From a virus: 64,000 bases of DNA. Where the stretch lies: positions 32,001 through 96,000 of the IMG/VR virus record IMGVR_UViG_3300033994_001756, one strand, 5' to 3'. Positions 42,242-60,571 of the stretch are shown here, one piece after another (position 1 is the first letter of the stretch; every line of letters begins with the position of its first letter). The notes below the pieces were generated by a model, which saw only the letters and a list, made by a program, of their open reading frames with translations, was not told the DNA's origin and ran no database searches. The position numbers and the translations under genes are program-made.

Positions 42242-43189
42242 ATGATTCGTAATGATTTTCTGTGGGTTGAAAAGTATCGTCCACAAAAAGTAAGTGACTG
42301 TATTCTTCCAAAAAATGTAAAGGATACATTTCAAAATTTTGTAGAGAAGGGAGAAATCCCTAATCTACTTTTGTGTGGTCCTCCAGGCATTGGTAAGACC
42401 ACCATCGCCAAGGCACTATGCAATGAACTAGGAGTAGATTTTTATGTCATCAACGGATCTGATGAAGGACGATTTCTGGACACGGTACGGAACCAAGCAA
42501 AAAACTTTGCATCGACCGTCTCACTTCAAGGAAATGGTAAACCAAAAGTCATCATCATTGACGAGGCAGATAACACAACCAACGACGTTCAACTCCTCCT
42601 ACGGGCTAATATTGAGACGTTTCATAGCAACTGCAGATTCATCTTCACCTGCAACTACAAGAATAAAATCATTGAACCGCTACAATCTAGGTGTGCCGTC
42701 TTCGATTTCGGTATCACAGGGAAGGACAAGCCAAGAGTTGCAGGACAATTCTTCAACCGTATCCGGACTATTCTTGAGGAAGAGAATGTCCAATATGATG
42801 AAAAGGTTGTTGCAGAAGTAATCAATAAATTCTTTCCTGATTGGCGTAGGGTTCTCAATGAACTCCAACGATATGCATCTTCTGGAATTATTGATATTGG
42901 AGTTCTGGCTTCGGTTAGCGATATCAACCTGAAGAATCTTGTAAATTCTCTAAAGGAAAAGAACTTCAAAGAGGTTCGTAAGTGGGTTGTGGAGAATCTT
43001 GATAATGATGTGAATTCTATTATCCGAAAGATCTACAATACTATGTACGAGTGTTTGGATGCTGGGTCGATTCCTCAAGCAGTATTGATTCTTGCTAAGT
43101 ATCAGTATCAATCAGCATTTGTTGCTGATCAAGAGATCAATACTCTTGCTTGCTTCACTGAAATTATGTGTGACTGTAAATTTAAATAA
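42242..43189 (+). CDS. gp44: Clamp loader large subunit gp44
   Basis: LWVEKYRP, GPPGIGKTT, IIDEAD and SRC motifs. Confidence 0.97.
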   Translation: MIRNDFLWVEKYRPQKVSDCILPKNVKDTFQNFVEKGEIPNLLLCGPPGIGKTTIAKALCNELGVDFYVINGSDEGRFLDTVRNQAKNFASTVSLQGNGKPKVIIIDEADNTTNDVQLLLRANIETFHSNCRFIFTCNYKNKIIEPLQSRCAVFDFGITGKDKPRVAGQFFNRIRTILEEENVQYDEKVVAEVINKFFPDWRRVLNELQRYASSGIIDIGVLASVSDINLKNLVNSLKEKNFKEVRKWVVENLDNDVNSIIRKIYNTMYECLDAGSIPQAVLILAKYQYQSAFVADQEINTLACFTEIMCDCKFK

Positions 43190-43578
43190 TGTACGATCTC
43201 AAAGACTATCTAAATTCAATCAATACCACTAAACAGAACTTGATCGACTCCGACGCAGAGGCGGAGTCCAAGTATCTTCCATACATTGTTAATAGGTGCT
43301 ATTCTGGTTTTATTGATACTATTCTTCTTGCTAATGAGATGAATTTAAATTCTCATATTGACAAGAAACTTCAATATGATTTTTATATAAATATTATCAG
43401 ACCAAAGAAACGTTTCTCTCCTTGGTTAAAGAAAGAGAAATTAGATTCATTGGAATGCATTAAAGAATATTATGGCTATAGTGATGAAAAGGCTAAGGTT
43501 GCCTTGAAAATATTAACAGACGAACAAATTGAATTTATCAGAACGAGATTGAATCGTGGAGGAAAAAATGAACGTTGA
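43189..43578 (+). CDS. gp62: Clamp loader small subunit gp62
   Basis: YLNSIN, ANEMN, KRFSPW and YYGYSDEKA motifs. Confidence 0.94.
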   Translation: MYDLKDYLNSINTTKQNLIDSDAEAESKYLPYIVNRCYSGFIDTILLANEMNLNSHIDKKLQYDFYINIIRPKKRFSPWLKKEKLDSLECIKEYYGYSDEKAKVALKILTDEQIEFIRTRLNRGGKNER

Positions 43579-43990
43579 TAGTGAAGTGAGTTGGTCACCA
43601 GATCAAATGGTTGAAGTAACTCTAAATGAGCCAGATGACTTTCTAAAAGTCAGGGAAACTCTAACTCGTATTGGAGTTGCATCACGAAAAGAAAAGAAGC
43701 TATATCAATCTTGCCATATTCTTCATAAGCAAGGTAGATATTATATTGTACACTTTAAAGAGCTTTTTGCATTAGATGGCAAAAGAGCCAATCTATTCTT
43801 GAACGATGTTCAACGAAAGAATAGAATTGCTCAGCTACTTCAGGATTGGGGTCTTGTACAGATTGTAAATGCTGAACAAGTAGCAGACGCAGCACCGCTG
43901 AGTCAGATTAAAGTTCTTTCATTCAAAGACAAACCAGAGTGGACTCTGGAAAGTAAATACAACATTGGCAAAAAGAAACAGCCAGAATAG
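43568..43990 (+). CDS. regA: Translational repressor RegA
   Basis: PDDFLKVRETLTRIG and LYQSCHILHKQGRYYIVHFKELF motifs. ATG at 43568 follows GGAGG (track start 43556). Confidence 0.96.
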   Translation: MNVDSEVSWSPDQMVEVTLNEPDDFLKVRETLTRIGVASRKEKKLYQSCHILHKQGRYYIVHFKELFALDGKRANLFLNDVQRKNRIAQLLQDWGLVQIVNAEQVADAAPLSQIKVLSFKDKPEWTLESKYNIGKKKQPE

Positions 43991-43993
43991 TAG

Positions 43994-44020
43994 AAAGGGG
44001 GCTTTAAGCCCCTTTTTTTT
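43994..44020. terminator. Probably bidirectional terminator between regA and the convergent minus-strand unit
   Basis: AAAGGGGGC-TTTAA-GCCCC-T8. Confidence 0.88.
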
Positions 44021-44165
44021 ATTTCATTGCCATTACAAGTTGTGCTTCTTTCAGTTTATTTTCTTTTTCAATCTGACTGCGAATTACTGCTAGCCAGTTA
44101 GAAGCAATTTGATTTTGGCGTGTATCGGTGTCGTATTTGGCACCACGATAAGTTGCTTGTGACAT
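44019..44165 (-). CDS. DUF4278-like small protein (48 aa, below the track cut-off)
   Basis: MSQATYRGAKYDTDTRQNQIASNWLAVIRSQIEKENKLKEAQLVMAMK. N-terminal TYRGxxY is the DUF4278 hallmark; AAGGAGA SD at 44178-44172. Confidence 0.85.
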   Translation of the reverse strand: MSQATYRGAKYDTDTRQNQIASNWLAVIRSQIEKENKLKEAQLVMAMK

Positions 44166-44195
44166 TAGGTTTCTCCTTAATTTTTAGGCTAAAGA

Positions 44196-44293
44196 GCGTT
44201 CCTTCAGTCGGCTTTTGCGTCCTCTATGAGGATGAACGATCCGTTCCGAGTCGGCTTACTTCCGTTCGCTATTTGCGAATAGCGAATGAACGT
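44196..44293 (-). ncRNA. Tandem glutamine-riboswitch-like aptamers (glnA / Downstream-peptide motif family)
   Basis: Minus strand, aptamer 1: CGTTCA-TTCGCTATT(cgca)AATAGCGAA-CGGAAGTAAGCCGACTCGGAACG. Aptamer 2: ATCGTTCA-TCCTC(ata)GAGGA-CGCAAAAGCCGACTGAAGGAACGC. Each has a P1 CGTTC/GAACG and a P2 hairpin; both lie 5' of a DUF4278-like ORF. Confidence 0.85.
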
Positions 44294-44317
44294 ATTATTA
44301 TATATGCAAGTATAATT

Positions 44318-44331
44318 GTAACATTTGATAC
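44318..44331. promoter_or_regulatory. NtcA binding site GTA-N8-TAC
   Basis: GTAACATTTGATAC, with GTAAC/GATAC half-sites. On the minus strand it lies 15 nt upstream of a TATAAT (44302-44297) that precedes the aptamers. Confidence 0.75.
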
Positions 44332-44335
44332 TGTT

Positions 44336-44656
44336 TTAATCTCGTTGTCTCCAGTCTTCTGGTTTATCTTCGGTGAAAAAATCTACAATATCATCTACGG
44401 TATCAAATCTACTGATTCCTTTTCGTTCATTTCCAAATCCACCAATATCAAGTTGATTTAAGAAATCATCTAGATCACCTTCTTGCATGTCTGGGTTTTC
44501 TGCTCTACGTCTTGCCTGGCGGAGCATAGTTCCTGCAGTTCTGTTTGCTTGTGCCAATTTCTCTGCCCAAATAATATCTTGCAATGAAACTTCGTTCCCA
44601 TCCACGATGTTATTGCAAATTGCTTCTAGTTTGAGTCGATAATTTGTAGAGAGCAT
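44336..44656 (-). CDS. Hypothetical protein (106 aa)
   Basis: Fills the gap between the riboswitch promoter and the hsp20 promoter; minus-strand ATAAATA at 44685-44679 upstream. Confidence 0.8.
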   Translation of the reverse strand: MLSTNYRLKLEAICNNIVDGNEVSLQDIIWAEKLAQANRTAGTMLRQARRRAENPDMQEGDLDDFLNQLDIGGFGNERKGISRFDTVDDIVDFFTEDKPEDWRQRD

Positions 44657-44793
44657 AATATGTACACTGATTATACTGTATTTATTTTCGGAAATCCGAA
44701 CTGGACATTCGACGATAATTATATATATAATTGTGAAGAGATGCCTTCGGGGTCTCTAGAAATAACTCTCGCTTACCAAGGAGATTAATAACA

Positions 44794-45258
44794 ATGAGAT
44801 TCACTACTCAATCACTAGACACATTTTGGACCGAATACGCTCCACTTGCTGTAGGTCTGGATGAAATGTTTAACCGATTAGATTCAATGCAAAATTCGGT
44901 AAACGTAAACTATCCTCCCTACAACATCGTCAAACATGACAACAGTAACTACACAGTTGAAGTCGCTCTTGCAGGATTTAAACCAGAAGAGATTGAAGTC
45001 TTTACAGAACAAAACATTCTCACAATTGCCAGCAAAGTTGAGGAACGAGATACTACAAGACAGTATGTACACCAAGGTCTATCAAAACGTTCCTTCACCC
45101 GTAAGATTCAACTCTCCGATGAACATAGAGTATCCTCTGTGAATTTTGAACATGGACTATTATCTGTAGACATTGAAAAAATTATTCCCGATCATCAAAA
45201 GAAAACAACCTGGGATATTCCAGGAGTCAAGACTGAAAAAGCTCTCTTGACAGAATAA
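44794..45258 (+). CDS. hsp20: Small heat-shock protein Hsp20 (IbpA-like)
   Basis: NYPPYNIVK, VEVALAGF, YVHQGLSKRSF and FEHGLL motifs; AAGGAG SD. Confidence 0.96.
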   Translation: MRFTTQSLDTFWTEYAPLAVGLDEMFNRLDSMQNSVNVNYPPYNIVKHDNSNYTVEVALAGFKPEEIEVFTEQNILTIASKVEERDTTRQYVHQGLSKRSFTRKIQLSDEHRVSSVNFEHGLLSVDIEKIIPDHQKKTTWDIPGVKTEKALLTE

Positions 45259-45331
45259 ATAGAGTTGGGAAATCCCCAAATATCGTCGGCACAGACCCAC
45301 CCTGGCAACTTTCAGGGATCGGGTCTTTTTT
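45255..45331 (+). ncRNA. Candidate late small RNA / structured terminator after hsp20
   Basis: ATAAATA overlaps the hsp20 stop, followed by hairpin TTGGG-aaatc-CCCAA, linker ATATCGTCGGCAC, and a bulged stem AGACCC.ac.CCTG-gcaacttt-CAGG.gatc.GGGTCT then a T run. Confidence 0.5.
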
Positions 45332-45332
45332 C

Positions 45333-45361
45333 TTGACATGGGCTCCTGGGTATGCTATACT
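45333..45361 (+). promoter_or_regulatory. Sigma70-type promoter for the gp43 unit
   Basis: TTGACA-N17-TATACT with TG extension. Confidence 0.88.
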
Positions 45362-45389
45362 ACATAGAGTTGTTCCCATGGACCCTGCC

Positions 45390-45755
45390 ATGAATATTAA
45401 ACTGATTCAACTTATCAACAATGATTATATTATCTGTGAATATGAGGAGCTAGACGAAGAACCTTCTCTATACATGAAAAATCCATATCGAGTTCTAGAC
45501 CTGACTTATTGGGATTACAATGATAAGGATAAACATTTCCCTCCAGATAATGCAGTATTTTTACGGACCACGGAAGAAAAAAATATCAAAGACGAAAAGG
45601 AAATTACAACTATTCAAACTGATTATGCTCAACTGGTTAGGTATCCTCTATTTACAGAAGACGTAGATATTCTTCTCAATTCAGATAAAATCATGACCAT
45701 AGTAGAACCCTGTCCAGAAATTCTAACCCTATACACTCAACTGATTGCTAAATGA
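45390..45755 (+). CDS. Conserved hypothetical protein upstream of gp43 (Sm-like fold likely)
   Basis: MNIKLIQLINNDYIIC...KNPY...DKIMTIVEP. The track start (45333) falls in the -35 box, so the real start is 45390 or 45378. Confidence 0.7.
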   Translation: MNIKLIQLINNDYIICEYEELDEEPSLYMKNPYRVLDLTYWDYNDKDKHFPPDNAVFLRTTEEKNIKDEKEITTIQTDYAQLVRYPLFTEDVDILLNSDKIMTIVEPCPEILTLYTQLIAK

Positions 45756-48244
45756 GGTTTTACACCAATGTACAACTAATTCGTGATGTAGTCCACTATC
45801 GTGGGTACAACAACGGAGTCAAGGAAATCTTCCAAGATACCTTTTCTCCCACATTGTTTGTGCCCTCGCCAAAACCTACTAAGTATAAAACCCTTACTGG
45901 TGATTATGTTAGTCCTATTGAATTTACTAGGACTAACGAAGCAAAAGACTTTCTAAAAAAGTACGATGGTGTAGACAACTTTACAGTGTATGGATATGAA
46001 AGGTTTTTGTATCAATACATAGCAGATCAATTTCCAGAGGACGAGATCAAATTTGATATCTCTTCTATGCACATTGTATCTCTAGACATTGAGGTGGCTT
46101 GTGAAAACGGGTTCCCGAATGTAGAGGCAGCTGCAGAAGAAATGCTCTGCATTACTGTAAAGGATATCAATACTAAACAAATCATTGTGTGGGGTGTCCG
46201 TGAATATGAAAACACTCGCTTAGATGTAGAATATCGAGTATTTTGGACCGAGCAAGAAATGCTTTCAAACTTTCTTGAATGGTGGGTTCAAAATACTCCT
46301 GATGTGGTTACTGGGTGGAACGTGACTTTGTATGACATCCCATACATTATGAGAAGGTTGGAGAAGGTACTGTCCACCAAACACATGAAGTCGATTTCCC
46401 CCTGGACAGTTGCCACCAACAGGGAAGTTGTGATCATGGGTAGGGCTCATATCATTTATGAGATTGCAGGACTATCTGTACTGGACTATCTGGATCTGTA
46501 CAAGAAGTTTACTTATACAAACAGAGAATCCTACCGACTAGATTACATCGCCCAAGTAGAACTAGGAGAACAAAAGCTCGATCACTCTGAGTTTGAAAAC
46601 TTCAAAGAATTTTATACCAGGGACTGGCAGAAGTTTATTGATTACAACATTCGTGACGTAGAACTTGTCGATCGTCTCGATGACAAGATGAAGCTGATTG
46701 AACTTGCTATTACGATGGCATATGACGCAAAAGAGAATTTTGAAGATGTATATTCTCAGGTAAAAACTTGGGACAATATTATCTTCAATTATTTGAAGAA
46801 GGGTCACATTGTAGTTCCCCCAAAGATTAGCCAGAAGAAAGATTATGCATATGAAGGAGCTTATGTAAAGGATCCCATAATCGGTAAGCATGATTGGGTG
46901 GTGAGTTTTGACTTGAACTCACTATATCCACACTTGATCATGCAGTACAATATTTCTCCTGAAACATTATTGACTGAACGATTCCCTGGTATAACAGTAG
47001 ATAAAATCCTACAGAAATCAGTAGATACAAGTTCACTAGAGTGTGCATCGGTCTGTGCAAATGGTGCAATGTATGATACCCATGAGATGGGGTTTCTTCC
47101 AAAGCTTATGCAGAAGATGTATGATGACCGAGTTATCTTCAAGAAAAAGATGCTTGAATCTAAAAAGCTTTATGAAGAAACTAAAGATAAGAAGCATCTG
47201 AAAGATATCGCACGATATGAAAACAATCAGATGGCACGTAAGATTGCACTAAACTCTGCTTATGGTGCGATTGGAAATGAATACTTCAGGTATTTTCTAA
47301 TTACTAATGCAGAAGCAATCACCCTATCTGGTCAAGTTTCAATCCGCTGGATTGAGAACAAAATGAATGCATATCTAAATAAACTGTTGAAAACAGATGG
47401 GGAGGATTATGTTATTGCTTCTGATACCGATTCCATTTATCTTAATCTGGGTCCTTTGGTTCAAACTATATACAAGGGAAGAGAGGAAGCTCCTGAGAAA
47501 ATTGTCGGGTTCCTTGATAAGATCTGTAAAGTGGAACTTGAACCTTATATTGAAAGTTGCTACCAAGAACTGGCAACGTATGTGAATGCGTATGACCAGA
47601 AGATGAAGATGAAACGAGAGAACATTGCAGACAAAGGAATTTGGACTGCGAAGAAACGTTACATGCTCAACGTCTGGGATTCAGAAGGTGTACGATATGA
47701 AAGTCCCAAGATGAAAATCATGGGATTGGAAACTGCCAGATCATCTACACCATCATATTTTAGGGACAAGTTGTTCAAAGCATTTCAAATTATTCTAACC
47801 AAAGATAATGATACATTGATCAATTTCATTAATCAGGTTAAAACTGATACGAGGAAACAAGATGTTGTAGACATTTCATTTCCAAGAAGCCTGAACAATC
47901 TTCATAAGTATAAGGGATCTTCTACTTTATATGCAGAGAAAACTCCAATCCAAGTACGGGGTGCTATTCTGTACAACCATCTGGTAAAAACTAAAAAACT
48001 GAATAACAAATATCCATATATCCAGGAAGGGGAAAAGGTTAAGTTTGTATACTTGAAAGTTCCTAACCCCATTCAAGAAAATGTAATTTCATATTTTCAA
48101 ACACTTCCATCAGAGTTTAACCTAGAAAAGTATATTGATTACAATATGCAATTCTCCAAGAGCTTCCTTGAACCACTAAACTCTGTGTTAAATTCGATCG
48201 GATGGGTATCCGAAAGACGTGGTACACTAGAAGCATTCCTATAA
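45752..48244 (+). CDS. gp43: Family B DNA polymerase gp43
   Basis: Exonuclease DIE; [22 protein letters not shown] and KKRY motifs. Confidence 0.98.
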
Positions 48245-48260
48245 AATTAATGAGGTAATT

Positions 48261-49301
48261 ATGAGTTTCTTAAATAGTGTAATTAAAGAACTGGACAATG
48301 AGTATGCAGGAATCGTCGAAGATGGAGTCGCCGCAGGAGATTGCGGTGGCTTTGTTGACACTGGGAGCTATATCTTTAATGCTCTCCTTAGTGGTAGTAT
48401 TTTTGGGGGGCTACCTAACAACAAGATTACAGCTCTCGCTGGTGAGTCATCTACTGGAAAAACTTTCTTTGCTCTGTCAATCGTTAAATACTTCCTTCAA
48501 CAAAATCCTAATGGAGAAGTAATTTACTTTGAAACTGAGTCTGCTATCACAAAAGATATGATGACTAGTCGTGGCATTGATGCCAAGCGAGTTGGTCTAG
48601 TCCCAGTATCTACTGTGCAGGAGTTTCGTACTCAGTCAATCAAAGTAGTTGATGAGTACATGAAACTTAAGAAGGATGAGCGCCCACCCCTCATGTTTGT
48701 GCTAGACTCTCTTGGAATGCTTGCCACCACCAAGGAGATTGAGGACGCCTCTGCGGGCAAGGAGACCCGTGATATGACCCGTTCGCAGGTCATCAAGTCT
48801 GTGTTCCGTATCCTGTCTCTGAAGCTTGGCACAGCGGGCATTCCGATGATCGTGACCAACCACACCTATGATGTGATTGGATCATACATGCCAACCAAAG
48901 AAATGGGTGGTGGATCTGGTCTTAAATATGCTGCTTCAACCATCGTTTACCTTTCTAAATCAAAGGAGAAAGATGGAACTGAAGTAGTAGGAAACATCAT
49001 CAAATGTAAAGCATTCAAGTCTAGGTTCACAAAGGAAAATTCACTAATCGAAACGAGGTTGTTCTATGATGAGCGTGGACTTGACAAATACTATGGATTA
49101 CTGGAACTGGGTGAGAAGTACGGAATCTTCATTAAGTCTGGGGGTCGTTATGAAATTAATGGGGGCAAGTTTTATGCTAAGGCTATTCTTTCAGAGCCTG
49201 AGAAATTCTTCACTCCCGAAGTGATGGAAGCACTTGACGAATGTGCCAAGAAGGAGTATAGTTATGGTACAGTGGACACCCTTGATGGAGATGATGCTTG
49301 A
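48261..49301 (+). CDS. uvsX: RecA-like recombinase UvsX
   Basis: [18 protein letters not shown] and [12 protein letters not shown] motifs. Confidence 0.97.
49234..49262 (+). promoter_or_regulatory. Possible sigma70-type promoter for gp41 (inside uvsX)
   Basis: TTGACG-N17-TATAGT. Confidence 0.5.
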
Positions 49302-50680
49302 TGGATCGAATTGAATCTAAAATTCTTTCAAATTTAATTTATGATGAAACATACACACGAAAAGTAATTCCCTTCATTAAAGAAACATATTTTGAACTCC
49401 TTCCAGAAAAAGTTGTATTCCAGGAGATTCAGAAGTATGTTATGAAATATGATGATATTCCATCTCAGTCAGTATTGAAGATTGAGATTGAGAATAGAAA
49501 AGATATTTCGGATGATGCTTTTCAAACTTCAGTCAATTTAGTAAATGATTTGAAGGAAGAAAAATTCGATGATCAATGGCTATTAGATACCACTGAAAAG
49601 TGGTGTAAGGACAGAGCCATTTATTTGGCTCTACTAGACTCAGTTAAAATTGCAGACGGAAAGGACAAGACTAGAAGCAAGGATTCAATCCCTTCTATCC
49701 TTTCCGATGCACTTGCAGTTTCATTTGATGACCACATTGGTCACGACTACATTTCAGATTCACAATCCCGATATGATTTCTATCACAAAAAAGAAGACAA
49801 AATTCCATTCGACCTTGAGCTATTCAACAAAATTACAAAAGGTGGCCTCCCTAACAAGACTCTCAATGTCGCTCTTGCTGGTACGGGTGTCGGCAAAAGT
49901 TTATTCATGTGCCACATGGCTAGCTCCATCCTCTTGCAGGGGCGCAATGTTCTCTACATTACACTTGAAATGGCAGAGGAAAGGATTGCTGAACGAATTG
50001 ATGCGAATCTCTTGAATGTAAATATTCAAGACATCACCAATCTACCTAAAGCTACATATGAATCTAAACTAGCAAAGATATCAGAAAAGACTAGAGGTAA
50101 ATTAATCATCAAGGAATATCCTACTGCTTCCGCACATGTGGGACATTTCAAAGCATTGCTAACTGATCTAGCTTTAAAGAAAGGATTCAAGCCAGATATG
50201 ATTTTCATTGACTATCTAAATATCTGTGCTTCTTCACGATACAAAGGAACTATTGTAAACTCCTACACTTACGTCAAAGCTATTGCTGAGGAGTTACGTG
50301 GACTTGCGGTAGAATGCAATGTTCCGATTGTATCTGCCACTCAAACTACTCGATCAGGTTATGGTAACTCTGACGTTGAGCTTACTGATACATCTGAATC
50401 ATTTGGTCTTCCCGCTACTGCTGATTTTATGTTTGCTCTTATCAGCACCGAAGAGCTTGAGAATCTAAATCAGATCATGGTCAAGCAGTTGAAGAATCGT
50501 TACAATGACCCCACTGCCTTCAAGAGATTCGTGGTGGGTATTGACAGGGCGAAGATGAAGCTGTATAATGTGGAGGACAGTGCTCAGCGAACCCTGATCC
50601 AAAGTGGTCAGCCAACTGAAGATGAGTACGAATCTAAATTTACTAAATCACAACGATCATTTGAAGGTTTTAAAGTATGA
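49301..50680 (+). CDS. gp41: Replicative helicase gp41
   Basis: AGTGVGKS, ITLEM, IDYL, SATQTTR, SESFGLP and KQLKNRY motifs; ATG overlaps the uvsX TGA. Confidence 0.97.
   Translation: MDRIESKILSNLIYDETYTRKVIPFIKETYFELLPEKVVFQEIQKYVMKYDDIPSQSVLKIEIENRKDISDDAFQTSVNLVNDLKEEKFDDQWLLDTTEKWCKDRAIYLALLDSVKIADGKDKTRSKDSIPSILSDALAVSFDDHIGHDYISDSQSRYDFYHKKEDKIPFDLELFNKITKGGLPNKTLNVALAGTGVGKSLFMCHMASSILLQGRNVLYITLEMAEERIAERIDANLLNVNIQDITNLPKATYESKLAKISEKTRGKLIIKEYPTASAHVGHFKALLTDLALKKGFKPDMIFIDYLNICASSRYKGTIVNSYTYVKAIAEELRGLAVECNVPIVSATQTTRSGYGNSDVELTDTSESFGLPATADFMFALISTEELENLNQIMVKQLKNRYNDPTAFKRFVVGIDRAKMKLYNVEDSAQRTLIQSGQPTEDEYESKFTKSQRSFEGFKV
50541..50569 (+). promoter_or_regulatory. Consensus sigma70 promoter inside the gp41 3' end, driving mazG
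   Basis: TTGACA-N17-TATAAT. Confidence 0.8.
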
Positions 50681-51117: not shown

Positions 51118-51530
51118 TGAACAATAATGATTGCCTAAAAGATGTATTTGGCAAGAACTCTACAATGATTTTGTCTGATGTAGAAAAACTACGATCTATT
51201 GGGCAGTCATTTAACTTCACAGTTTCTCAGCATAAGATGTTCATGATTGCTCTTAGAAACGCAGAGAATTCAATCAAGAAAAACTCTGCGTTTCTAAATT
51301 TTATTTTCAAGAATCAGACGTTTTATTTGTTTGTAATATTCAAATCATTTATACAAACGCCAGGAAATTTAGATACATTTGAAGAGTATTATTCCAAAGC
51401 TACTCGCAATAATAAAAATGCAAAGTATGGATTGGACTTCTTCAAATTGTATCAGCAAAACTTTGAAGAGATTTATAGACTAGCAAAGTATTTGACCACC
51501 GCTAAATCCATTGTAAGAACTAAGTTTTAA
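51117..51530 (+). CDS. Hypothetical protein (137 aa)
   Basis: TGATG coupling to mazG and an AGGAG SD; no recognisable motif. Confidence 0.65.
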   Translation: MNNNDCLKDVFGKNSTMILSDVEKLRSIGQSFNFTVSQHKMFMIALRNAENSIKKNSAFLNFIFKNQTFYLFVIFKSFIQTPGNLDTFEEYYSKATRNNKNAKYGLDFFKLYQQNFEEIYRLAKYLTTAKSIVRTKF

Positions 51531-51562: not shown

Positions 51563-52756
51563 ATGAAAACTTTTAGGCAATTTATAACAGAAGCACGAAC
51601 TCCTGCGGGAAAGGAAGCGGAGAAAAAAGGTCTTGCCCATGCAGGAAAAGGATATTACACTGACGCTAAGGGAAACGTTGTAGCCAAGAGTGAAAAGGGT
51701 GGACAGAAGCTAGTACCTATTTCAAAGGAAGATAAGAAGAAGTTAAAAGATGGTAAACCTCTTATGGGACCATCTTCTGTTGCAGACATGCAAAACATGT
51801 CTCAACCACCACAACCCCAGTCACAATCACCAGAAACCACTGCAGAACAACCTCCAGAGCAACTTGAGCCTGGTGATGGTCCTGCAGTGGTTATTACTTT
51901 TGGAAGATTTAATCCCCCTTCAATTGGGCATGAAAACCTCATCAATGCGGTTCAGGAACAGGCAGAAGAACTGGAAGCAGAGTATAGAATTTATCCAAGT
52001 AGAACATCAGATAAAAAGCAGAATCCGTTAGACTTCAAAACCAAGTATAATATTCTCCAGCATGTATTCACCGATCATGCAGAGAATATTATCAATGATC
52101 CCGAAAATGGAGATAATATTTACGACATTCTGACTTCACTGCATGATGAAGGATATCACCATGTAGTCATTATGTGCGGTGACGAAAATGTTCAAAAGTA
52201 TGAAAAGATTGCACAAAAATATAATGGTACAGTTTACGATTTCTATGGAGTAGAAGTTGTTGGTGCTGGAATGCCAGATCCAGATAATGATAAATCTGAA
52301 GGCATTACAAGTTCTATGATGCGTAAGTCAGCACTTGAAAATGATTACGAGACATTCAAGCAAGGTCTTCCCGGCAATGTAAGTAAAAAGGAATGCCGTG
52401 CAATCTATAGTCAAGTTCGTAAGTCTATGAGTTTGAAGGAAGAACTTTGGATGATCGCTCCAAATCTAGATAGTAGCAATCTTCGTGAAGAATACTATCA
52501 AGGTAATATTTACAATCTCGGTGAGCATGTAATAGATTCAGTTACTGGCATATCTGGAAAGATTGTTACCAGAGGATCTAACTATGTAATCTTTGTAGAT
52601 GAGCAAAAGAAAATTCACCGTACATGGATTAAAGATCTAAGCTATCATCCAGGTCCACTTGAAATTGGAACTGATGATTACAGAGAATATCTACAACGAA
52701 TGCATCCTACCGAGCCAGTTAAGTCATTTACTAAAGGTAAGCGAAAAGATAAATAA
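51563..52756 (+). CDS. Cytidylyltransferase-like (HxGH-class nucleotidyltransferase) late protein
   Basis: TFGRFNPPSIGH, KKQNPL and ITSSMMR motifs; N-terminus MKTFRQFITE; late box CTAAATA at 51532-51538. Confidence 0.85.
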   Translation: MKTFRQFITEARTPAGKEAEKKGLAHAGKGYYTDAKGNVVAKSEKGGQKLVPISKEDKKKLKDGKPLMGPSSVADMQNMSQPPQPQSQSPETTAEQPPEQLEPGDGPAVVITFGRFNPPSIGHENLINAVQEQAEELEAEYRIYPSRTSDKKQNPLDFKTKYNILQHVFTDHAENIINDPENGDNIYDILTSLHDEGYHHVVIMCGDENVQKYEKIAQKYNGTVYDFYGVEVVGAGMPDPDNDKSEGITSSMMRKSALENDYETFKQGLPGNVSKKECRAIYSQVRKSMSLKEELWMIAPNLDSSNLREEYYQGNIYNLGEHVIDSVTGISGKIVTRGSNYVIFVDEQKKIHRTWIKDLSYHPGPLEIGTDDYREYLQRMHPTEPVKSFTKGKRKDK

Positions 52757-52787
52757 TAATAAATAGAACTTCAATAACGTACAGAAT

Positions 52788-55103: not shown

Positions 55104-55135
55104 TAAATATAGATGATCCATTATAGGAGAAAATC

Positions 55136-55309
55136 ATGGGAGTATTAGTAGACGTAGTTAAGCCACTACTCTTAGCTGCAATGAATAGTTGCCACACTAA
55201 GAGACTTGTTTGTGAACTACTTGATCGTTATGTAAATACCACTGATAATGATATTGATAATGTACTTGCTGCAACTGTAAGAACTGCACTTCTTAGAGAT
55301 TGTAAGTGA
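55136..55309 (+). CDS. Small hypothetical protein (57 aa, TDNDID motif; below the track cut-off)
   Basis: MGVLVDVVKPLLLAAMNSCHTKRLVCELLDRYVNTTDNDIDNVLAATVRTALLRDCK; AGGAGA SD; ATAAATA at 55103-55109. Confidence 0.8.
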   Translation: MGVLVDVVKPLLLAAMNSCHTKRLVCELLDRYVNTTDNDIDNVLAATVRTALLRDCK

Positions 55310-55458
55310 TTGAATGTTTACTTCTGAACTGGGGAGTAGAGTTAATTTTAATTCTACTCTTAGCAGGTTCAGAGTACTTAGGTAAAACAAAACGATTTAA
55401 AGAGAATACTATAATAGATTTTACTAAAAATACAATTAAACGTATGTTGGGGAGGTGA
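55306..55458 (+). CDS. Small single-TM protein, holin-like (50 aa; below the track cut-off)
   Basis: GTGA overlap with the upstream stop. MIECLLLNWGVELILILLLAGSEYLGKTKRFKENTIIDFTKNTIKRMLGR: hydrophobic N-terminal half and basic tail; ends in a terminator. Confidence 0.6.
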   Translation: MIECLLLNWGVELILILLLAGSEYLGKTKRFKENTIIDFTKNTIKRMLGR

Positions 55459-55471
55459 CTCCCCATTTTTT
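55448..55471 (+). terminator. Rho-independent terminator
   Basis: TGGGGAG-GTGA-CTCCCCA-T6, abutting the late promoter TATAAATA at 55471-55478. Confidence 0.85.
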
Positions 55472-55511
55472 ATAAATATTAATAGAATAAAAATTTCAAG
55501 AGGATTTTTAG

Positions 55512-56114
55512 ATGTCTTTATACGGAAGAACTGACTCTAACGCAAACAAGACCAAAGTTGAAAGAACTATTGCTCCTTCATCCCAGGCTAAAACTATTGT
55601 TTTTGTTGATGAAACTGAGGCTCGTTTAAACGAAAACCGTCAGCGTGGTATTGATGGTCCTGGCTGGTGGGCGTATTTTACCTATACTGATAATGCAGGG
55701 AATACTCGCCACAAGGCAGAGAAGCTAGTTGCACTTGGAAATCCAGATACTACTGAAACTCAGGCTGATGACGCTATTGTAGCTGACGTTGCATCTTCAG
55801 TAACAATTAATGTTGCATATCCACAGAATGCTACTACAACATCTGGCGGGGCAACATTTACTGTATCTGGACAAACTACTACCACTGGAACTCCAGGAAC
55901 TTTACTATACCAGTGGCAAATTCAAACCCCAACTGGTACTCGTTGGACCAACCTAACAAATACTGGAATTTACACTGGTTCTACCACTCATACCCTAACT
56001 TTAACTGGAGCAACATCTGCAGTTTCTGGAAGTAAGTATAGAGTAAAAATCACCTCTACTGGTGGTACTGAAGAAGTAATTTCTAGAACTGCCACACTAA
56101 CATTTGGAACCTGA
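55512..56114 (+). CDS. Putative virion decoration protein with a C-terminal Ig-like domain
   Basis: GIDGPGWW.Y.TYTD..G..RHKAE motif; Ig I-set-like LLYQWQ...TLTLTG....GSKYRV; follows a late promoter. Confidence 0.7.
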   Translation: MSLYGRTDSNANKTKVERTIAPSSQAKTIVFVDETEARLNENRQRGIDGPGWWAYFTYTDNAGNTRHKAEKLVALGNPDTTETQADDAIVADVASSVTINVAYPQNATTTSGGATFTVSGQTTTTGTPGTLLYQWQIQTPTGTRWTNLTNTGIYTGSTTHTLTLTGATSAVSGSKYRVKITSTGGTEEVISRTATLTFGT

Positions 56115-56120
56115 TAATAA

Positions 56121-56483
56121 ATGAGATTTAATGAGTTGAATGATGATAACTTTTTGTTATTTGCAATTAAACATTATGACAACCCAAATGCGATGACAAA
56201 AGATGATTTTCTTGAAGACCTGAAACGATTTAAGTATATCAAAAGATTACTTAAAAGATATGATAAAACAGGAATTCTGAAAACTCATCTTTTGTTAAAT
56301 CATATTATAGTTGTATATAATATTTTCGGTGACGCTGCGACCCCTTTATTGTTTTTCAAAATTGAAACTCAATATTGGACATATTTGAAGTCCTTTATAT
56401 TATTTTTAGATCGACTGGAACCAGACACTATTCCCCATATAAGTCCAGATAATTATTGTTTAGAAGAACTCAACAAGATATGA
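56121..56483 (+). CDS. Conserved T4-like phage hypothetical protein
   Basis: LNDDNFLLFAIKHYDNP, DLKRFKYIKRL and LLLNHIIV.YN.FG motifs. Confidence 0.8.
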   Translation: MRFNELNDDNFLLFAIKHYDNPNAMTKDDFLEDLKRFKYIKRLLKRYDKTGILKTHLLLNHIIVVYNIFGDAATPLLFFKIETQYWTYLKSFILFLDRLEPDTIPHISPDNYCLEELNKI

Positions 56484-56866
56484 ATTACAACGAAGAAGTT
56501 GCTGCTAATAGTGTTGGTGATGGATCAGCAGTATCAATCCCTCCAAGTGTTGAGCCACCTGGAATTCCTGCGTCTAAAAGAAAAAAGAGAAAAAAAGTAA
56601 ATGAACAAACATTATTTGAAAGTGGCGGTAAAGTAATTGACCAATTAAAGCAAATTGCATTAGCTGGCCAGCAAGGAGTTGTCATGTTTGATAATGGAGA
56701 GAAAGCTCAAGTTTCTCCTGATGGTGCAAATAAATTAGTTGACTTGTATCGAAACTTAAACGCTAGTAATAGAGTTAAAATGATTAAAACAATCAATTCA
56801 TCTTCTTCTGGATTTGAAAAGATTTCGACATTCGCATCCACTAGAGGTTCCCAACCAGCACAATAA
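56480..56866 (+). CDS. Hypothetical protein
   Basis: ATGA overlap with the upstream stop at 56480 is preferred to the track start 56456; NEEVAANSVG and LFES module boundaries. Confidence 0.7.
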   Translation: MNYNEEVAANSVGDGSAVSIPPSVEPPGIPASKRKKRKKVNEQTLFESGGKVIDQLKQIALAGQQGVVMFDNGEKAQVSPDGANKLVDLYRNLNASNRVKMIKTINSSSSGFEKISTFASTRGSQPAQ

Positions 56867-56880
56867 CCAATAGAGGTAGC

Positions 56881-57297
56881 ATGTTTCAGTCTCAAACTAC
56901 AGAAACTAAATTAGCTTTACTGGAAGAGAAGCTAAACATATACGAGCAAATGATGAGAAAGATTGAATCTGCAATAGAAAAGATTAGCGAGACTAGTCAA
57001 ACAATCAGTAAAATGTTGGCTATTCATGAAGAGAGACTAGAGCAAACATCTAAATCTGATGAAGTTATTATTAGTATGGTGCATGATATCAAAAAAAGTA
57101 ATACTGAAGAACATAAAAACGTTATTGAAAGAGTAGAAGAAGTAGAAAAAACAGTTGGAGATTTATTAAAGTTTAGGTGGCAGGTGGCCGCCATCTCAGG
57201 GGCAGTTGTCCTAGTGGTCGGCCTGGTGGTCCCATTCATTGACAACATGCTCGCAATGCCCTATAATGGAGGGACTGAGCAAACCACCAAAAAATGA
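56881..57297 (+). CDS. Coiled-coil protein with a C-terminal transmembrane helix
   Basis: KMLAIHEERL coiled coil, then KFRWQVAAISGAVVLVVGLVVPF; GAGGT SD. Confidence 0.75.
   Translation: MFQSQTTETKLALLEEKLNIYEQMMRKIESAIEKISETSQTISKMLAIHEERLEQTSKSDEVIISMVHDIKKSNTEEHKNVIERVEEVEKTVGDLLKFRWQVAAISGAVVLVVGLVVPFIDNMLAMPYNGGTEQTTKK
57239..57267 (+). promoter_or_regulatory. Consensus sigma70 promoter for primase-nrdAB
   Basis: TTGACA-N17-TATAAT inside the 3' end of the upstream ORF. Confidence 0.85.
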
Positions 57298-58274
57298 GTT
57301 ACATTGACATCAAATACATTAATCTCATTTCAATTAGACTAGACAAATTTGCAAAGAAGAAAGATAATCTATATAACTTTAGGTGTCCTTATTGCGGTGA
57401 CTCTACGAAAAATAAAAACCGTGCAAGGGGATTCCTCTACCGAAAAAATGCAGACATGGTATTCAAGTGCCATAACTGTGGGGTAGGACGTTCATTAGCT
57501 AATTTTCTAAAGGATCTAGATGTCACTGTCCATGATGAATATGTCATGGAGAGATTTAAGTCTGGATTGACTGGTCGTGGTTCAAACACTGCAGAGCCTA
57601 AGTTTGAGTTTCAGAAACCAGTATTTAAAAAGACTCCATTATCAGAGCTGGAAAAGATATCAGAACTAAATAATTCACACCCAGCAAAAAAATACCTTCT
57701 CAACAGACAGATCCCAGAAAAGTTCTTTTCTAAATTCTATTACGCCGAGGATTTTCATGCTTGGGCCAAGACTGAAACAAAAATCAAAGAGTCTAGAATC
57801 ATCATCCCACTCATGTCCAAAAGTGGAAAACTTTTTGGATATCAGGGGAGGGCTCTTGACAAAACTGCAAAACTACGCTATATTACTACCATCCTGGATG
57901 ATAAGTACGCTAAACTATTTGGACTTGATTCTTTAGATTTCGACAAAACCATCTATGTCACAGAGGGTCCTTTCGACTCTCTTTTTCTGTCTAATGCAAT
58001 TGCCATGTGTGGATCTGATGTATATCTAGAAAAGTCTATCTACAAAGATAGAGTTTTCATTTTAGACAACGAACCTCGCAATCTTCAAATTGTTCAACGC
58101 TATGACAAACTTATCAGTGCAGGAGAGAAGGTGGTTATTTGGCCTTCTAATGTCAAAGAAAAGGATATAAACGATATGATTATTGCTGGACTCAACCCAC
58201 AGCAATTAGTTACAGACAATACCTATCAGGGGTTGGAAGCTAAAGTTAAATTTACTACATGGAAGAAAGTATGA
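57294..58274 (+). CDS. gp61: DNA primase gp61
   Basis: CPYCGDS...KCHNCG zinc finger; TEGPFDS, DNEPRN and KDINDM TOPRIM motifs. Confidence 0.97.
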   Translation: MSYIDIKYINLISIRLDKFAKKKDNLYNFRCPYCGDSTKNKNRARGFLYRKNADMVFKCHNCGVGRSLANFLKDLDVTVHDEYVMERFKSGLTGRGSNTAEPKFEFQKPVFKKTPLSELEKISELNNSHPAKKYLLNRQIPEKFFSKFYYAEDFHAWAKTETKIKESRIIIPLMSKSGKLFGYQGRALDKTAKLRYITTILDDKYAKLFGLDSLDFDKTIYVTEGPFDSLFLSNAIAMCGSDVYLEKSIYKDRVFILDNEPRNLQIVQRYDKLISAGEKVVIWPSNVKEKDINDMIIAGLNPQQLVTDNTYQGLEAKVKFTTWKKV

Positions 58275-60571
58275 GTAACGGTACTAAAGTTAAAAAACGT
58301 AATGGTACTTTTGAATCTCTAGATCTAGACAAGATTCATAACATGGTTGAATGTGCTTGTGGTGGATTAGCAGGTGTTAGTGCATCTCAAGTGGAGATTC
58401 AGTCTGGTCTTCAATTTTATGATGGGATTACAACAGATGAAATCCAAGAAATCCTGGTTAGGTCAGCTAGCGACCTTATCAGTCTCGATAATCCAAATTA
58501 TCAGTATGTTGCTGCTCGTCTCTTGCTTTTCGGTTTATATAAGCAAGTCTTTGGAGCTAATTGGAAGAACGGGTTCCCCTCAATAGGAGATCATCTATAT
58601 CATGGGGTAATGAAAGGTGTTTATGATAAAGCCCTTTCTGGAAAGTATACTGATGATGAATGGGACAAAATTAATTCTTGGATTGATCATGAAAGAGATT
58701 ATATCTTTACTTATGCTGGACTCAGGCAAGTAGTAGACAAATATCTTGTACAAGACAGGAGTTCAAAGACAATATATGAAACTCCCCAATACATGTACAT
58801 GCTAATTTCTGCAACCATGTTTGCAGAATATCCAAAGGAAACTAGACTTGATTATGTCAAACGATACTACAACGCAATCTCCAAACACCGAATTAACATT
58901 CCCACGCCAATTATGGCAGGTGTTAGAACCCCTCTTCGTCAATTTGCTTCTTGTGTGCTTATTGATTCTGACGATTCTCTTAACTCTATCTTCAGCTCTG
59001 ACATGGCTATTGGCCGTTATGTGGCTCAGCGTGCAGGAATCGGTATCAACGCAGGCCGAATCAGGGGTATCAATAGCAAAATCCGTGGAGGAGAAGTCGC
59101 ACATACAGGAGTCATTCCGTTTCTCAAGAAATTTGAAGCGACGGTCAGGTGTTGCACTCAAAACGGCATACGAGGTGGCTCAGCTACAGTTCATTTTCCT
59201 ATTTGGCATCAAGAAATTGAAGACATCATAGTTCTAAAGAATAATAAAGGAACTGAAGATAACAGAGTTCGTAAGCTAGACTATAGCATTCAAATTAGCA
59301 AGATCTTCTATGAACGATTCATTCAAAACGGAGAAGTCTCACTCTTCTCTCCACACGACGTTCCTGGTTTGTATGATGCTTTTGGCACTGATAGATTTGA
59401 CGAGCTATATGTATCTTATGAACGAGATACATCTATTCCAAGAAAAACTATCGGCGCTCAAGAACTATTTCTAAACATCCTCAAGGAACGTGCAGAAACA
59501 GGTCGTATTTACATCATGAATATCGACCATTGCAATTCACACTCTTCCTTCCTTGATAAAGTGAACATGTCTAATCTCTGCCAAGAGATTACACTTCCAA
59601 CAGTTCCCATCAATCATATTGATGATTCAAGTGGCGAAATTGCACTTTGTATTCTATCTGCAGTTAATGTAGGTAAGATTAGCAACTTTGATGAGATGGA
59701 AGAACTATGCGATCTGTCTATTCGTGCCCTAGATGAACTGATTGATTATCAAGATTATCCAATCGAAGCTGCACGTATTTCAACCAAGGCACGTCGTTCT
59801 CTTGGTGTTGGCTACATTGGTCTTGCTCACTTCCTTGCTCGTAATGGAGTAAAGTATGAAGACCCCCAAGCATGGAAACTAGTTCACGATCTGACAGAAG
59901 CATTCCAGTATTATCTTCTCAAGGCATCCAATCAACTTGCTATTGAAAAGGGTAAGTGTGATTATTTTGGTCGTACTAAGTATTCTCATGGTGTTCTCCC
60001 AATCGATACATACAAAAAAGATGTAGACGAAATCACACCAAACGATCTTCAGTATGATTGGGAAACTCTTAGAACATCCATCCTGGCTCACGGTCTCAGG
60101 CACTCAACATTGTCCGCACAAATGCCTTCTGAGAGCAGTTCCGTTGTGTCAAATGAAACAAATGGAATCGAGCCACCTAGAGATTACTTGTCCGTTAAAA
60201 AATCAAAGAAGGGACCACTTAAGCAAATTGTTCCCAGCTATCAATCTCTCAAGAAGAACTATACGCTTCTCTGGGATATGCCTAGCAACACTGGTTATAT
60301 TAATATTGTTGCTGTGATGCAAAAGTTCTTTGACCAGGCAATCTCTGGTAACTGGAGTTACAATCCAGAGAACTATCCAGATAATGAAGTTCCAGTATCT
60401 GTTATGGCTCAAGATCTTCTATCAACATACAAGTATGGCTGGAAGACAAGCTACTATCAGAACACCTATGATAGTAAGTCTGACGGAGATGTAGAAGAAA
60501 AAGGTGAAGCATTAACTCAATTACTTGCTCAACTAGAATCAGACGACGACTGCGAAAGCTGCAAAATCTAA
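58271..60571 (+). CDS. nrdA: Ribonucleotide reductase class Ia alpha subunit
   Basis: ATP cone VKKRNG; QFASCVL, SNLCQEI, SAQMPSESSS and KTSYY motifs; C-terminal CESCKI. Start placed at the ATGA overlap. Confidence 0.98.
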   Translation: MSNGTKVKKRNGTFESLDLDKIHNMVECACGGLAGVSASQVEIQSGLQFYDGITTDEIQEILVRSASDLISLDNPNYQYVAARLLLFGLYKQVFGANWKNGFPSIGDHLYHGVMKGVYDKALSGKYTDDEWDKINSWIDHERDYIFTYAGLRQVVDKYLVQDRSSKTIYETPQYMYMLISATMFAEYPKETRLDYVKRYYNAISKHRINIPTPIMAGVRTPLRQFASCVLIDSDDSLNSIFSSDMAIGRYVAQRAGIGINAGRIRGINSKIRGGEVAHTGVIPFLKKFEATVRCCTQNGIRGGSATVHFPIWHQEIEDIIVLKNNKGTEDNRVRKLDYSIQISKIFYERFIQNGEVSLFSPHDVPGLYDAFGTDRFDELYVSYERDTSIPRKTIGAQELFLNILKERAETGRIYIMNIDHCNSHSSFLDKVNMSNLCQEITLPTVPINHIDDSSGEIALCILSAVNVGKISNFDEMEELCDLSIRALDELIDYQDYPIEAARISTKARRSLGVGYIGLAHFLARNGVKYEDPQAWKLVHDLTEAFQYYLLKASNQLAIEKGKCDYFGRTKYSHGVLPIDTYKKDVDEITPNDLQYDWETLRTSILAHGLRHSTLSAQMPSESSSVVSNETNGIEPPRDYLSVKKSKKGPLKQIVPSYQSLKKNYTLLWDMPSNTGYINIVAVMQKFFDQAISGNWSYNPENYPDNEVPVSVMAQDLLSTYKYGWKTSYYQNTYDSKSDGDVEEKGEALTQLLAQLESDDDCESCKI

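Follow-up and report, generated by a model that had tools for sequence, protein, structure and literature searches.

Does the DNA analyzed here, a 64,000-nucleotide stretch of a T4-like cyanomyovirus (the window), carry genes read in the +1 frame inside its core enzymes, or are the long +1 open reading frames found there an accident of codon usage? A preliminary description had listed eight same-strand +1-frame ORFs in six core genes (gp44, gp43, uvsX, gp41, gp61 and nrdA) and attributed them to dual-coding constraint. All eight lie where it had placed them and the host genes are confirmed by Pfam (Table 1); TTG or GTG, not ATG, opens three of them (gp41, first nrdA and the long version of the second). 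The gp43 gene shares about 67% nucleotide identity with cyanophage polymerase genes, and the NrdA protein carries the Pfam domains ATP-cone, Ribonuc_red_lgN and Ribonuc_red_lgC. Comparing the sequences of relatives, we find it quite likely that at least three of the eight ORFs (gp43-alt, nrdA-alt-A and nrdA-alt-B) are real overprinted protein-coding genes, conserved across T4-like cyanophages (Kyanoviridae). In these three, selection holds the frame open, limits synonymous change in the host gene and fixes particular residues of the +1 product.

Table 1. Host genes, +1-frame ORFs and Shine-Dalgarno-like (SD-like) motifs, in window coordinates.
Feature	Position	Strand	Description
gp44 host gene	42242..43189	+	clamp loader large subunit; Pfam AAA and Gp44_lid
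SD-like AGGAG	42430-42434	+	9 nt upstream of the gp44 ORF ATG
gp44 +1 ORF	42444..42821	+	125 codons, ATG start; moderately supported
gp43 host gene	45752..48244	+	family B DNA polymerase, 830 aa; Pfam DNA_pol_B and DNA_pol_B_exo1
gp43 +1 ORF	47397..47585	+	62 codons from ATG 47397; strongly supported
SD-like GGAGG	47401..47405	+	3 nt upstream of the second gp43 ATG (47409); read from sequence
gp43-alt	47409..47585	+	from the conserved start ATG 47409; 58-aa product
uvsX host gene	48261..49301	+	RecA-like recombinase; Pfam RecA
uvsX +1 ORF	48298..48522	+	74 codons, ATG start; moderately supported
gp41 +1 ORF	49650..50015	+	121 codons, TTG start; not supported
gp61 +1 ORF	57757..57936	+	59 codons, ATG start; not supported
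nrdA host gene	58259..60571	+	class Ia ribonucleotide reductase alpha subunit, 770 aa
First nrdA +1 ORF	58374..58586	+	70 codons, GTG start; not supported
Second nrdA +1 ORF, long version	58821..59231	+	136 codons, TTG start
nrdA-alt-A (second nrdA +1 ORF)	58854..59231	+	125 codons from first ATG; strongly supported
nrdA-alt-B (third nrdA +1 ORF)	60054..60317	+	87 codons, ATG start; strongly supported

Within this genome, the length of the ORFs says little. Synonymous-codon shuffling predicts 20.6 +1 ORFs of at least 55 codons and 20 are observed; none of the host genes in this genome has fewer +1 stops than the shuffle predicts, and stop density in the +1 frame (0.067) is half that of the +2 frame (0.120). 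The warning given with the ORFs, that their length is weak evidence, therefore holds for this genome, where the codon-shuffle null places the lengths within chance. Only the region from 42 to 62 kb shows a mild excess of +1 ORFs (14 versus 8.8, p=0.018), and the longest ORF relative to this null, that of gp41, reaches a p of about 0.01, uncorrected for 55 genes. The ORF intervals had also been thought, by eye, to be rich in seven scarce codons (ACG, CGG, TCG, GCG, CCG, GGG and AGG). When counted, these make up 1.7% of codons window-wide and, in the same host genes, 4.3% inside the ORFs (32/750) versus 2.3% outside (52/2297; Fisher p=0.004); a null that finds long ORFs anew in synonymous shuffles yields 3.0 ± 0.8%, which leaves it marginal (P=0.06) and hence suggestive only.

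The comparison with relatives is what carries the case. We used about 80-160 diverged relatives per gene from metagenomic contigs, and non-redundant representatives of less than 60% synonymous-codon identity, deriving the expected number of +1 stops from the host protein sequence. Synonymous constraint is expressed as a heterozygosity ratio, and the statistics have no tree-based or explicit phylogenetic model behind them. Outside the intervals of interest, synonymous heterozygosity is about 0.8-0.9, near saturation, with some 30% codon identity to the window. The gp43-alt interval contains 38 +1 stops versus 320 expected in 105 relatives, ranking first of 804 windows, whereas the other non-overlapping windows all lie at 0.93-1.46 of expectation; among the non-redundant representatives there are 15 stops versus 200 expected, and 62/68 are open versus 4.8 expected. 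Synonymous heterozygosity is 0.48-0.63 here (0.58), also rank 1 of 804, and the minimum of the gene falls exactly on the ORF. In nrdA-alt-A a single stop is found over 100 codons in 82 relatives, versus about 212 expected (1 versus 157, and 55/56 open versus 4.4 expected, in the non-redundant set), and synonymous heterozygosity is 0.55-0.65. For nrdA-alt-B the non-redundant figures are 9 stops versus 116 expected and 51/56 open versus 8 expected, with a heterozygosity of 0.53. No such depleted regions were found in control genes.

The manner in which stops are avoided is as telling as their number. Codons able to make a +1 stop are avoided in these three ORFs only where the next base completes the stop: xTA before a purine stands at 0.07-0.12 of expectation in gp43-alt, 0.00 in nrdA-alt-A and 0.11 in nrdA-alt-B, versus 1.62, 0.84 and 0.64 before a pyrimidine, and xTG before A at 0.15, 0.02 and 0.07. 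Outside the three intervals all these context classes are close to 1. In nrdA-alt-A, xTA occurs 0 times versus 166 expected before purines and 94 times versus 112 expected before pyrimidines, and codon and next base co-vary inside single alignment columns; at column 229 of nrdA, GTG followed by C occurs 41 times and GTT or GTC followed by A 36 times, while GTG or GTA followed by A never occurs. The within-column Mantel-Haenszel z is -7.3 for gp43-alt, -6.1 for nrdA-alt-A and -7.7 for nrdA-alt-B, and positive in the remainder of the genes.

Particular residues of the +1 products are held in the same way. The product of nrdA-alt-B consists of a conserved core of 65 aa, in which the motif HCPHxC-x7-C-x13-CPL is found, and a hydrophobic C-terminal tail of variable length. 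Two of its cysteines are kept through host leucine xTG codons (77/83 and 73/83 versus 28% expected) and another through a host valine GTG (76/83, or 92%, versus 13% expected); a host serine is TCC in 78/83, and prolines and a histidine are likewise fixed by non-preferred host codons. Four near-invariant cysteines and a histidine might suit a zinc-ribbon or zinc-knuckle mini-protein, although their spacing (C-x3-C-x7-C-x13-C) is other than the canonical paired CxxC.

Could all of this arise without any +1 translation, from a local preference for certain codons or codon pairs where the enzymes are functionally critical, combined with shared ancestry and with our having picked intervals that are open in this genome? 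Several of the depleted regions do overlap catalytic or NTP-binding motifs (motif C in gp43; Walker regions in uvsX, gp44 and gp17), depletion is seen again in a weaker form (0.3-0.5) in gp41, gp61 and nrdB, and the single-genome test of ORF length is not significant. However, outside the intervals the ratio at strongly conserved L/I/V columns is 1.01, which rules out host conservation as the cause, and the same codons are used freely, even inside a single column, wherever the following base would not make a stop. Nor are stops depleted in the +2 frame (1.17), variation at synonymous sites beyond the intervals is close to saturated, and rare codons such as GTG are fixed exactly at +1 cysteines. 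We consider this account highly improbable. The antisense frame is also ruled out as the cause, because antisense-only stop classes are at 0.77 of expectation and sense-only classes at 0.13.

A constraint of another kind, imposed by a nucleic-acid element (for example structured RNA, a promoter within the gene, or a site of homing or recombination), would lower synonymous variation locally, as is seen. But RNAalifold detected no conserved pairs or structure in the gp43 interval, and such an element does not explain why TAA, TAG and TGA are avoided, by frame and by context, along 60-115 codons, nor why the start and stop positions and the +1 cysteines are preserved, which makes it extremely unlikely.

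Selection for an open +1 frame, on the other hand, is blind to who reads that frame, and the ribosomes could be frameshifting ones that produce a truncated enzyme with a +1 tail, such as a fragment of the gp43 exonuclease domain or of the NrdA ATP-cone, instead of independent small proteins. The boundaries of the ORFs are informative here. In 86-98% of relatives the open region has an ATG at its 5' edge, in part forced by host residues: the conserved start of gp43-alt at 47409 arises from host D-Y-V codons, which yield ATT-ATG whenever the tyrosine is TAT, so that this start is partly host-forced, and TAT is used there in 92% of cases versus up to 97% at other conserved tyrosine columns. The edge ATG is found in about 91/106 relatives for gp43-alt and in 71/83 for nrdA-alt-B (an ATG at column 607 in 55/83). 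Core SD motifs precede the ORF ATG in 19-47% of relatives, that is, they are missing in half or more, as compared with a background of 8-15% and with 48% for annotated genes. In the window itself, the SD-like motifs reported before the alternative ATGs of gp44, gp43 and gp61 are present, that of gp61 being GAGG.

The forced starts and the missing SD motifs would suit frameshifting, yet stops occur at a normal rate directly upstream (235 versus 224 expected in gp43 columns 555-574), the last one lying 1-15 codons from the gp43-alt ATG, so that the shift would have to take place within a few codons. Relatives that lack one nrdA-alt-A ATG have another nearby (column 206, 211 or 212, in 81/83), SD motifs are some 3-6 times as frequent as before other +1 ATGs (29% versus 11% before the first gp43-alt ATG; 47% versus 8-11% for nrdA-alt-A), and the alignment shows no obvious slippery motif by inspection. 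The end of nrdA-alt-A is held too, with ATA followed by G at the stop column 55 times versus 4 expected and a length of 115-127 codons across relatives. We judge frameshifting very unlikely and infer that the three ORFs are translated as separate proteins. Ribosomes would start at an internal ATG on the mRNA of the host gene itself, behind an SD-like purine run in many lineages, and would read the +1 frame for about 58 codons in gp43-alt, 121 in nrdA-alt-A and 65-116 in nrdA-alt-B, to a defined stop.

The putative products are moderately conserved (modal-residue frequency 0.66-0.73), are modeled by AF2 as simple helices only (pLDDT 85.6 for gp43-alt) and contain predicted hydrophobic helices (maximum KD19 2.3-2.5). 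Pfam and PHROG searches with them gave no match at E<0.01, and their look-alikes in databases proved to be frameshift chimeras of gp43 or nrdA. The gp43-alt product starts with a hydrophobic helix at its N-terminus and continues with a basic amphipathic one, and its hydrophobicity exceeds the synonymous-shuffle mean in 97% of representatives; in that of nrdA-alt-A the hydrophobic helix is central, between a polar N-terminus and a polar tail rich in S, T, Q and K, with a hydrophobic segment above that of synonymous shuffles in 93%. Judging from these predictions, both would be single-pass membrane or membrane-associated mini-proteins, and nrdA-alt-B would encode a four-cysteine mini-protein, probably metal-binding, with an optional hydrophobic tail as anchor. 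The transmembrane-like products with basic tails initially described thus survive for gp43-alt, beyond what codon bias gives, and not for the hydrophilic gp44 product or the cysteine-rich one of nrdA-alt-B. As to their roles we can only guess at an early function at the membrane or in host takeover, for example in excluding superinfection or timing lysis, each option with a low chance of being right.

Small genes of this design are known elsewhere. Gene E of phiX174, like B in A and K in A/C of the Microviridae, is a small same-strand +1 gene wholly inside a larger essential gene, D, whose synonymous sites are constrained as in the hosts described here, and the E protein combines a transmembrane helix at the N-terminus with a basic C-terminal part, as predicted for gp43-alt. 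However, the ssDNA genome of phiX174 has 5.4 kb and is under extreme pressure to stay small, while the phage studied here is a large dsDNA myovirus with related isolates of 170-250 kb; there is no sequence similarity to E (no Pfam or PHROG match), and a lysis role is not implied. Rz1 of Lambda, nested in Rz, is likewise an embedded +1 gene of a dsDNA phage encoding a small envelope protein, and was overlooked for years because annotation discards nested ORFs; Rz and Rz1 are coupled lysis partners, whereas a polymerase and a ribonucleotide reductase have no evident link to a membrane protein, and we saw no lipoprotein signal in the products. PB1-F2 of Influenza A, an accessory protein of fewer than 100 aa with an amphipathic basic helix, is also read in the +1 frame of a polymerase gene (PB1), and some lineages can do without it or carry it truncated, as seems to be true of the gp44 and uvsX ORFs, but it belongs to a eukaryotic RNA virus, is reached by leaky scanning, and is unrelated in sequence and host. 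The L protein of MS2 and other single-gene lysis proteins are short overprinted ORFs with a hydrophobic helix and a charged region too; they come from ssRNA phages, and we found no homology to them. For T4-like phages, lysis is expected to follow the holin-endolysin route.

The isolates Syn9 and P-SSM4 carry all three ORFs, whereas two enterobacterial phages lack them and have stops at the expected rate; nrdA-alt-A is broken in Serratia phage Muldoon and in coliphage TH41. None of the three is annotated in any record, and our literature search found no paper describing them and no cyanophage ribosome-profiling study. Syn9 and P-SSM4 are culturable model phages, so the claim can be tested directly, and the orphan products have simple testable features: for two of them a membrane helix is predicted, and the other has a motif of four cysteines. 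The cyanomyoviruses rank with the most heavily sequenced phages and with those of greatest ecological importance, their polymerase gene serves as an environmental marker, and hundreds of genomes have been annotated without any gene inside gp43 or nrdA. If the ORFs are translated, the known core genes of the family do not make up the full set, synonymous sites in marker genes are not neutral, a point of importance for work on diversity and on dN/dS, and large dsDNA phages without obvious size pressure create and keep genes by overprinting their most conserved enzymes.

Dual coding, proposed for the whole set, thus holds strongly for three ORFs (open frame, drop in synonymous variation, residue constraint) and moderately for those of gp44 and uvsX, which are interrupted in about 45% of lineages. 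The gp44 ORF has 101 stops versus 320 expected, with 51/85 relatives open (non-redundant: 40 versus 114, and 20/35 open versus 2.6 expected); xTA stands at 0.22 of expectation before purines and 1.64 before pyrimidines, a core SD motif is found in 46% of relatives, and synonymous constraint is weak (0.68 versus about 0.79). Its product is basic, rich in S and T and hydrophilic, less hydrophobic than shuffles in 87% of representatives. The uvsX ORF, whose product has a hydrophobic center, has 91 stops versus 222 expected and is open in 53/91 (non-redundant: 64 versus 135, and 30/54 versus 6.6 expected), with no synonymous constraint (0.86 versus 0.88); it is open in Syn9 and broken in P-SSM4 and in relatives of 79-82% identity. 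Both probably represent overprinted genes of an accessory kind that roughly half of the lineages have retained.

The three other ORFs are chance products of T/C-ending codon bias. That of gp41 has 203 stops versus 275 expected (0.74), 5/62 open, heterogeneous start positions and no synonymous drop (0.91), and is broken in Syn9 and P-SSM4; that of gp61 has 416 versus 538 in 164 relatives (0.77; column test p=0.39) and a heterozygosity of 0.88; the first of nrdA has 251 versus 214 (1.17) and 0/82 open.

A wider layer is a tentative idea: five to ten conserved overprinted genes, unannotated, could lie in the core enzyme and structural genes of T4-like cyanophages (two in nrdA, one each in gp43, gp44 and uvsX, with gp17, gp23, gp61 and nrdB as candidates), encoding membrane mini-proteins and a cysteine-motif protein, some of which might supply functions without a recognized cyanomyovirus gene, such as holin/antiholin or superinfection exclusion. 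Similar +1 signals are seen in the terminase gene gp17 and the capsid gene gp23, so that the overprinting signal is not confined to replication genes.

According to Pfam, the plus strand of the window encodes gp44, gp43, UvsX, gp41, gp61, NrdA and NrdB of a T4-like cyanophage, and the DNA of its polymerase gene is ~67% identical to the counterparts in Synechococcus and Prochlorococcus myoviruses. The eight alternative ORFs claimed in the preliminary description are all found in the sequence, each in frame +1 of the annotated enzyme gene that contains it (the host gene), and so are the SD-like motifs it cited; three of the eight start with TTG or GTG instead of ATG. Its warning that ORF length is weak evidence was well founded, single-genome statistics being uninformative. 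The GC content of the window is 28-42%, the density of stops in the +1 frame is about half that of the +2 frame, and the +1 frame holds 20 of the 21 ORFs that reach 55 codons in the alternative frames of the same strand. A codon-permutation null (synonymous shuffling within genes) predicts 20.6 such +1 ORFs, against 20 observed, and no host gene among those of the window has fewer +1 stops than expected from the shuffles. With no window-wide excess, and with the only nominal outlier in length, the gp41 ORF (p ~0.01 among 55 genes), later failing the comparative test, ORF length was rejected as evidence. The codons described as scarce (ACG, CGG, TCG, GCG, CCG, GGG and AGG) are indeed rare, at 1.7% of codons, and account for 4.3% within the ORFs versus 2.3% in the remainder of the same host genes (p=0.004). 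However, this enrichment is marginal (P=0.06) against the proper null, which re-selects long ORFs in synonymous shuffles, and we dropped it as evidence.

Coordinates, counted from the start of the window, of the alternative ORFs and candidate regions
Feature	Position	Strand	Host gene position	Details
terminase large subunit ORF	22024-22200		21561-23237	58 codons; core, columns 160-199
major capsid (gp23) ORF	31062-31271		29885-31276	69 codons; 3' end of gene
gp44 ORF	42444-42821	plus
gp43 antisense ORF	47375-47566	minus		63 codons
gp43 ORF	47397-47585	plus		ATG at 47409
uvsX ORF	48298-48522	plus
gp41 ORF	49650-50015	plus
gp61 ORF	57757-57936	plus	57294-58274
gp61 downstream candidate		plus	57294-58274	columns 260-320
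nrdA first ORF	58374-58586	plus
nrdA-A (second ORF)	58854-59231	plus		115-127 codons across relatives
nrdA-B (third ORF)	60054-60317	plus
nrdB candidate		plus	60583-61746	columns 208-258

Dual coding was assessed on codon alignments of 80-160 relatives per gene drawn from IMG/VR, the stops expected in the alternative frame being calculated sequence by sequence, from the protein that each one encodes and the codon usage that it shows; the statistics combine independence-based expectations with redundancy filtering in place of a tree model. Larger samples were needed than our first ones of only 7 gp44 and 2 nrdA relatives, in which the signal was absent or unclear. Outside the regions discussed here synonymous sites are near saturation (heterozygosity at 0.8-0.9 of its maximum) and only ~30% of degenerate codons match those of the window. 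The proposal of dual coding is strongly supported for gp43, nrdA-A and nrdA-B, whose frames are open in relatives and accompanied by a drop in synonymous variation; it is weaker for gp44 and uvsX, and it fails for gp41, gp61 and the first nrdA ORF. In the non-redundant set, limited to representatives below 60% synonymous-codon identity, fully open frames number 62/68 for gp43, 55/56 for nrdA-A and 51/56 for nrdA-B, where 4-8 would be expected. The within-column Mantel-Haenszel z is -6 to -8 inside these three ORFs and positive elsewhere in their genes, and no comparable region appears in seven neighbouring genes or in the portal gene. Codon optimisation at conserved residues, which could have offered another explanation, was rejected on the stop ratio of 1.01 at conserved L/I/V columns elsewhere and on the context dependence of codon choice inside single columns. 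From this pattern of selection we infer that the three supported ORFs are likely translated.

The gp43 ORF contains 38 +1 stops in 105 relatives where 320 are expected, ranking first of 804 sliding windows; the remaining non-overlapping windows all lie at 0.93-1.46 of expectation. Its edges are sharp: in windows of 20 columns, observed over expected stops go from 235/224 before the ORF to 27/135, 1/91 and 10/93 inside it, and to 214/180 after it, with thirteen successive informative columns depleted when the next longest run in the gene is two. Codon choice depends on the following base: xTA codons drop to 0.12 of expectation when a purine follows and reach 1.62 when a pyrimidine does, and for xTG codons the ratio is 0.15 ahead of A and 1.33 ahead of any other base. 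The local synonymous constraint that the preliminary description had anticipated coincides with the ORF, in that heterozygosity falls to its whole-gene minimum, 0.58, beginning at the ORF's first column. RNA structure was rejected as the cause of these patterns, RNAalifold finding 0 conserved pairs in the interval. The antisense ORF, which overlaps the +1 ORF and shares the register of the gp43 codons, could also have been the true target of selection; yet stop classes exclusive to the antisense frame are at 0.77 of expectation versus 0.13 for those exclusive to the sense +1 frame. It is open because TTA and CTA are avoided, which keeps the sense +1 frame open. The sense ORF starts at an ATG built from host D-Y-V codons and has three alternative stop positions, its median length being 61 codons. 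The preference for TAT at this Tyr is not exceptional among Tyr columns, and we discarded it as proof of a conserved start.

Across 82 nrdA relatives, nrdA-A shows 1 stop versus ~212 expected over 100 codons and the core of nrdA-B 3 versus 86, with no depletion in the first ORF (ratio 1.17). In nrdA-A, xTA before a purine occurs 0 times versus 166 expected, whereas before a pyrimidine it occurs 94 times versus 112 expected, and the choice follows the next base within single columns: at column 229, 41 sequences have GTG before C and 36 have GTT or GTC before A. An ATG is present at one of three closely spaced columns in 81/83 sequences, and the stop derives from ATA, an Ile codon seldom used otherwise, which occurs 55 times versus 4 expected. 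In the nrdA-B product, four cysteines, two prolines and one histidine are nearly invariant because the host gene picks non-preferred synonymous codons, such as Leu xTG at 93% and 88% (28% expected) and Val GTG at 92% (13% expected). Just upstream of nrdA-A, in columns 182-232, +2-frame stops fall to 0.41 of expectation; about 1.7 of them persist per sequence and the +2 frame is therefore not open, the drop being probably compositional.

For gp44, non-redundant relatives show 40 +1 stops versus 114 expected, with 20/35 frames open, a slight synonymous drop, the SD motif in 46% and a product more hydrophilic than shuffles. The corresponding figures for uvsX are 64 stops versus 135 and 30/54 open, with no synonymous drop; the ORF is broken in the nearest relatives (79-82% identity) and in P-SSM4, and the hydrophobic centre of its product exceeds that of shuffles in 89% of representatives. 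Our reading of both, at roughly 55-60% for gp44 and 45-50% for uvsX, is that they are accessory ORFs retained in part of the family. The gp41, gp61 and first nrdA ORFs behave like chance ORFs.

The +1 products have no match in Pfam or PHROGs. Word-index and profile searches of 1.84 billion representatives brought up only look-alikes, apparent frameshift chimeras or genes called on long-read assemblies full of indels, as verified for P0002, P0008, P0010, P0036 and P0037. The first three (with loci L645-L647) are public metagenome gene calls in which one half follows the host frame of gp43 or nrdA and the other half its +1 frame; they stem from frameshift errors in long-read assemblies polished with pilon, where nrdA is split into several calls. 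The model of the gp43 product shows a short hydrophobic helix followed by a long basic one (pLDDT 85.6), and that of the nrdA-A product a hydrophobic helix at its centre, predicted with confidence (pLDDT 82-94 in the helix; 71 overall); without proving anything, both models are compatible with membrane mini-proteins.

Among isolates, Syn9 and P-SSM4 carry the gp43 ORF and both supported nrdA ORFs, the third nrdA ORF terminating early in P-SSM4. In Serratia phage Muldoon and coliphage TH41, for which the comparison covers nrdA, +1 stops occur at the expected rate at both sites. Embedded +1 genes are a well-known kind, exemplified by phiX174 E and lambda Rz1, to which the supported gp43 and nrdA ORFs would belong. 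No gene is annotated inside the supported regions in the phage records examined, and we found neither a published report of these ORFs nor cyanophage ribosome profiling in a literature search that covered subscription journals thinly. These instances appear to be new, as does the finding of such ORFs within polymerase and reductase genes in a family of large dsDNA phages.

Other regions showed similar signals. Downstream of the gp61 ORF, the candidate region has 93 +1 stops versus 322 expected, with xTA before a purine at 0.28; the window itself carries a stop in this region, which leaves the candidate ORF broken or missing here. In nrdB, +1 stops fall to 0.27 of expectation in 72 relatives, whose median ORF is 56-65 codons, the counterpart in the window having only 24-32. 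The capsid ORF has 24 stops versus 96 expected in 78 relatives, and depletion is absent from the remainder of gp23 and from the entire portal gene. Finally, the core of the terminase ORF shows 8 +1 stops versus 87 expected in 79 relatives, with a slight synonymous drop (0.74), and may represent another conserved overprinted ORF, in a late gene.
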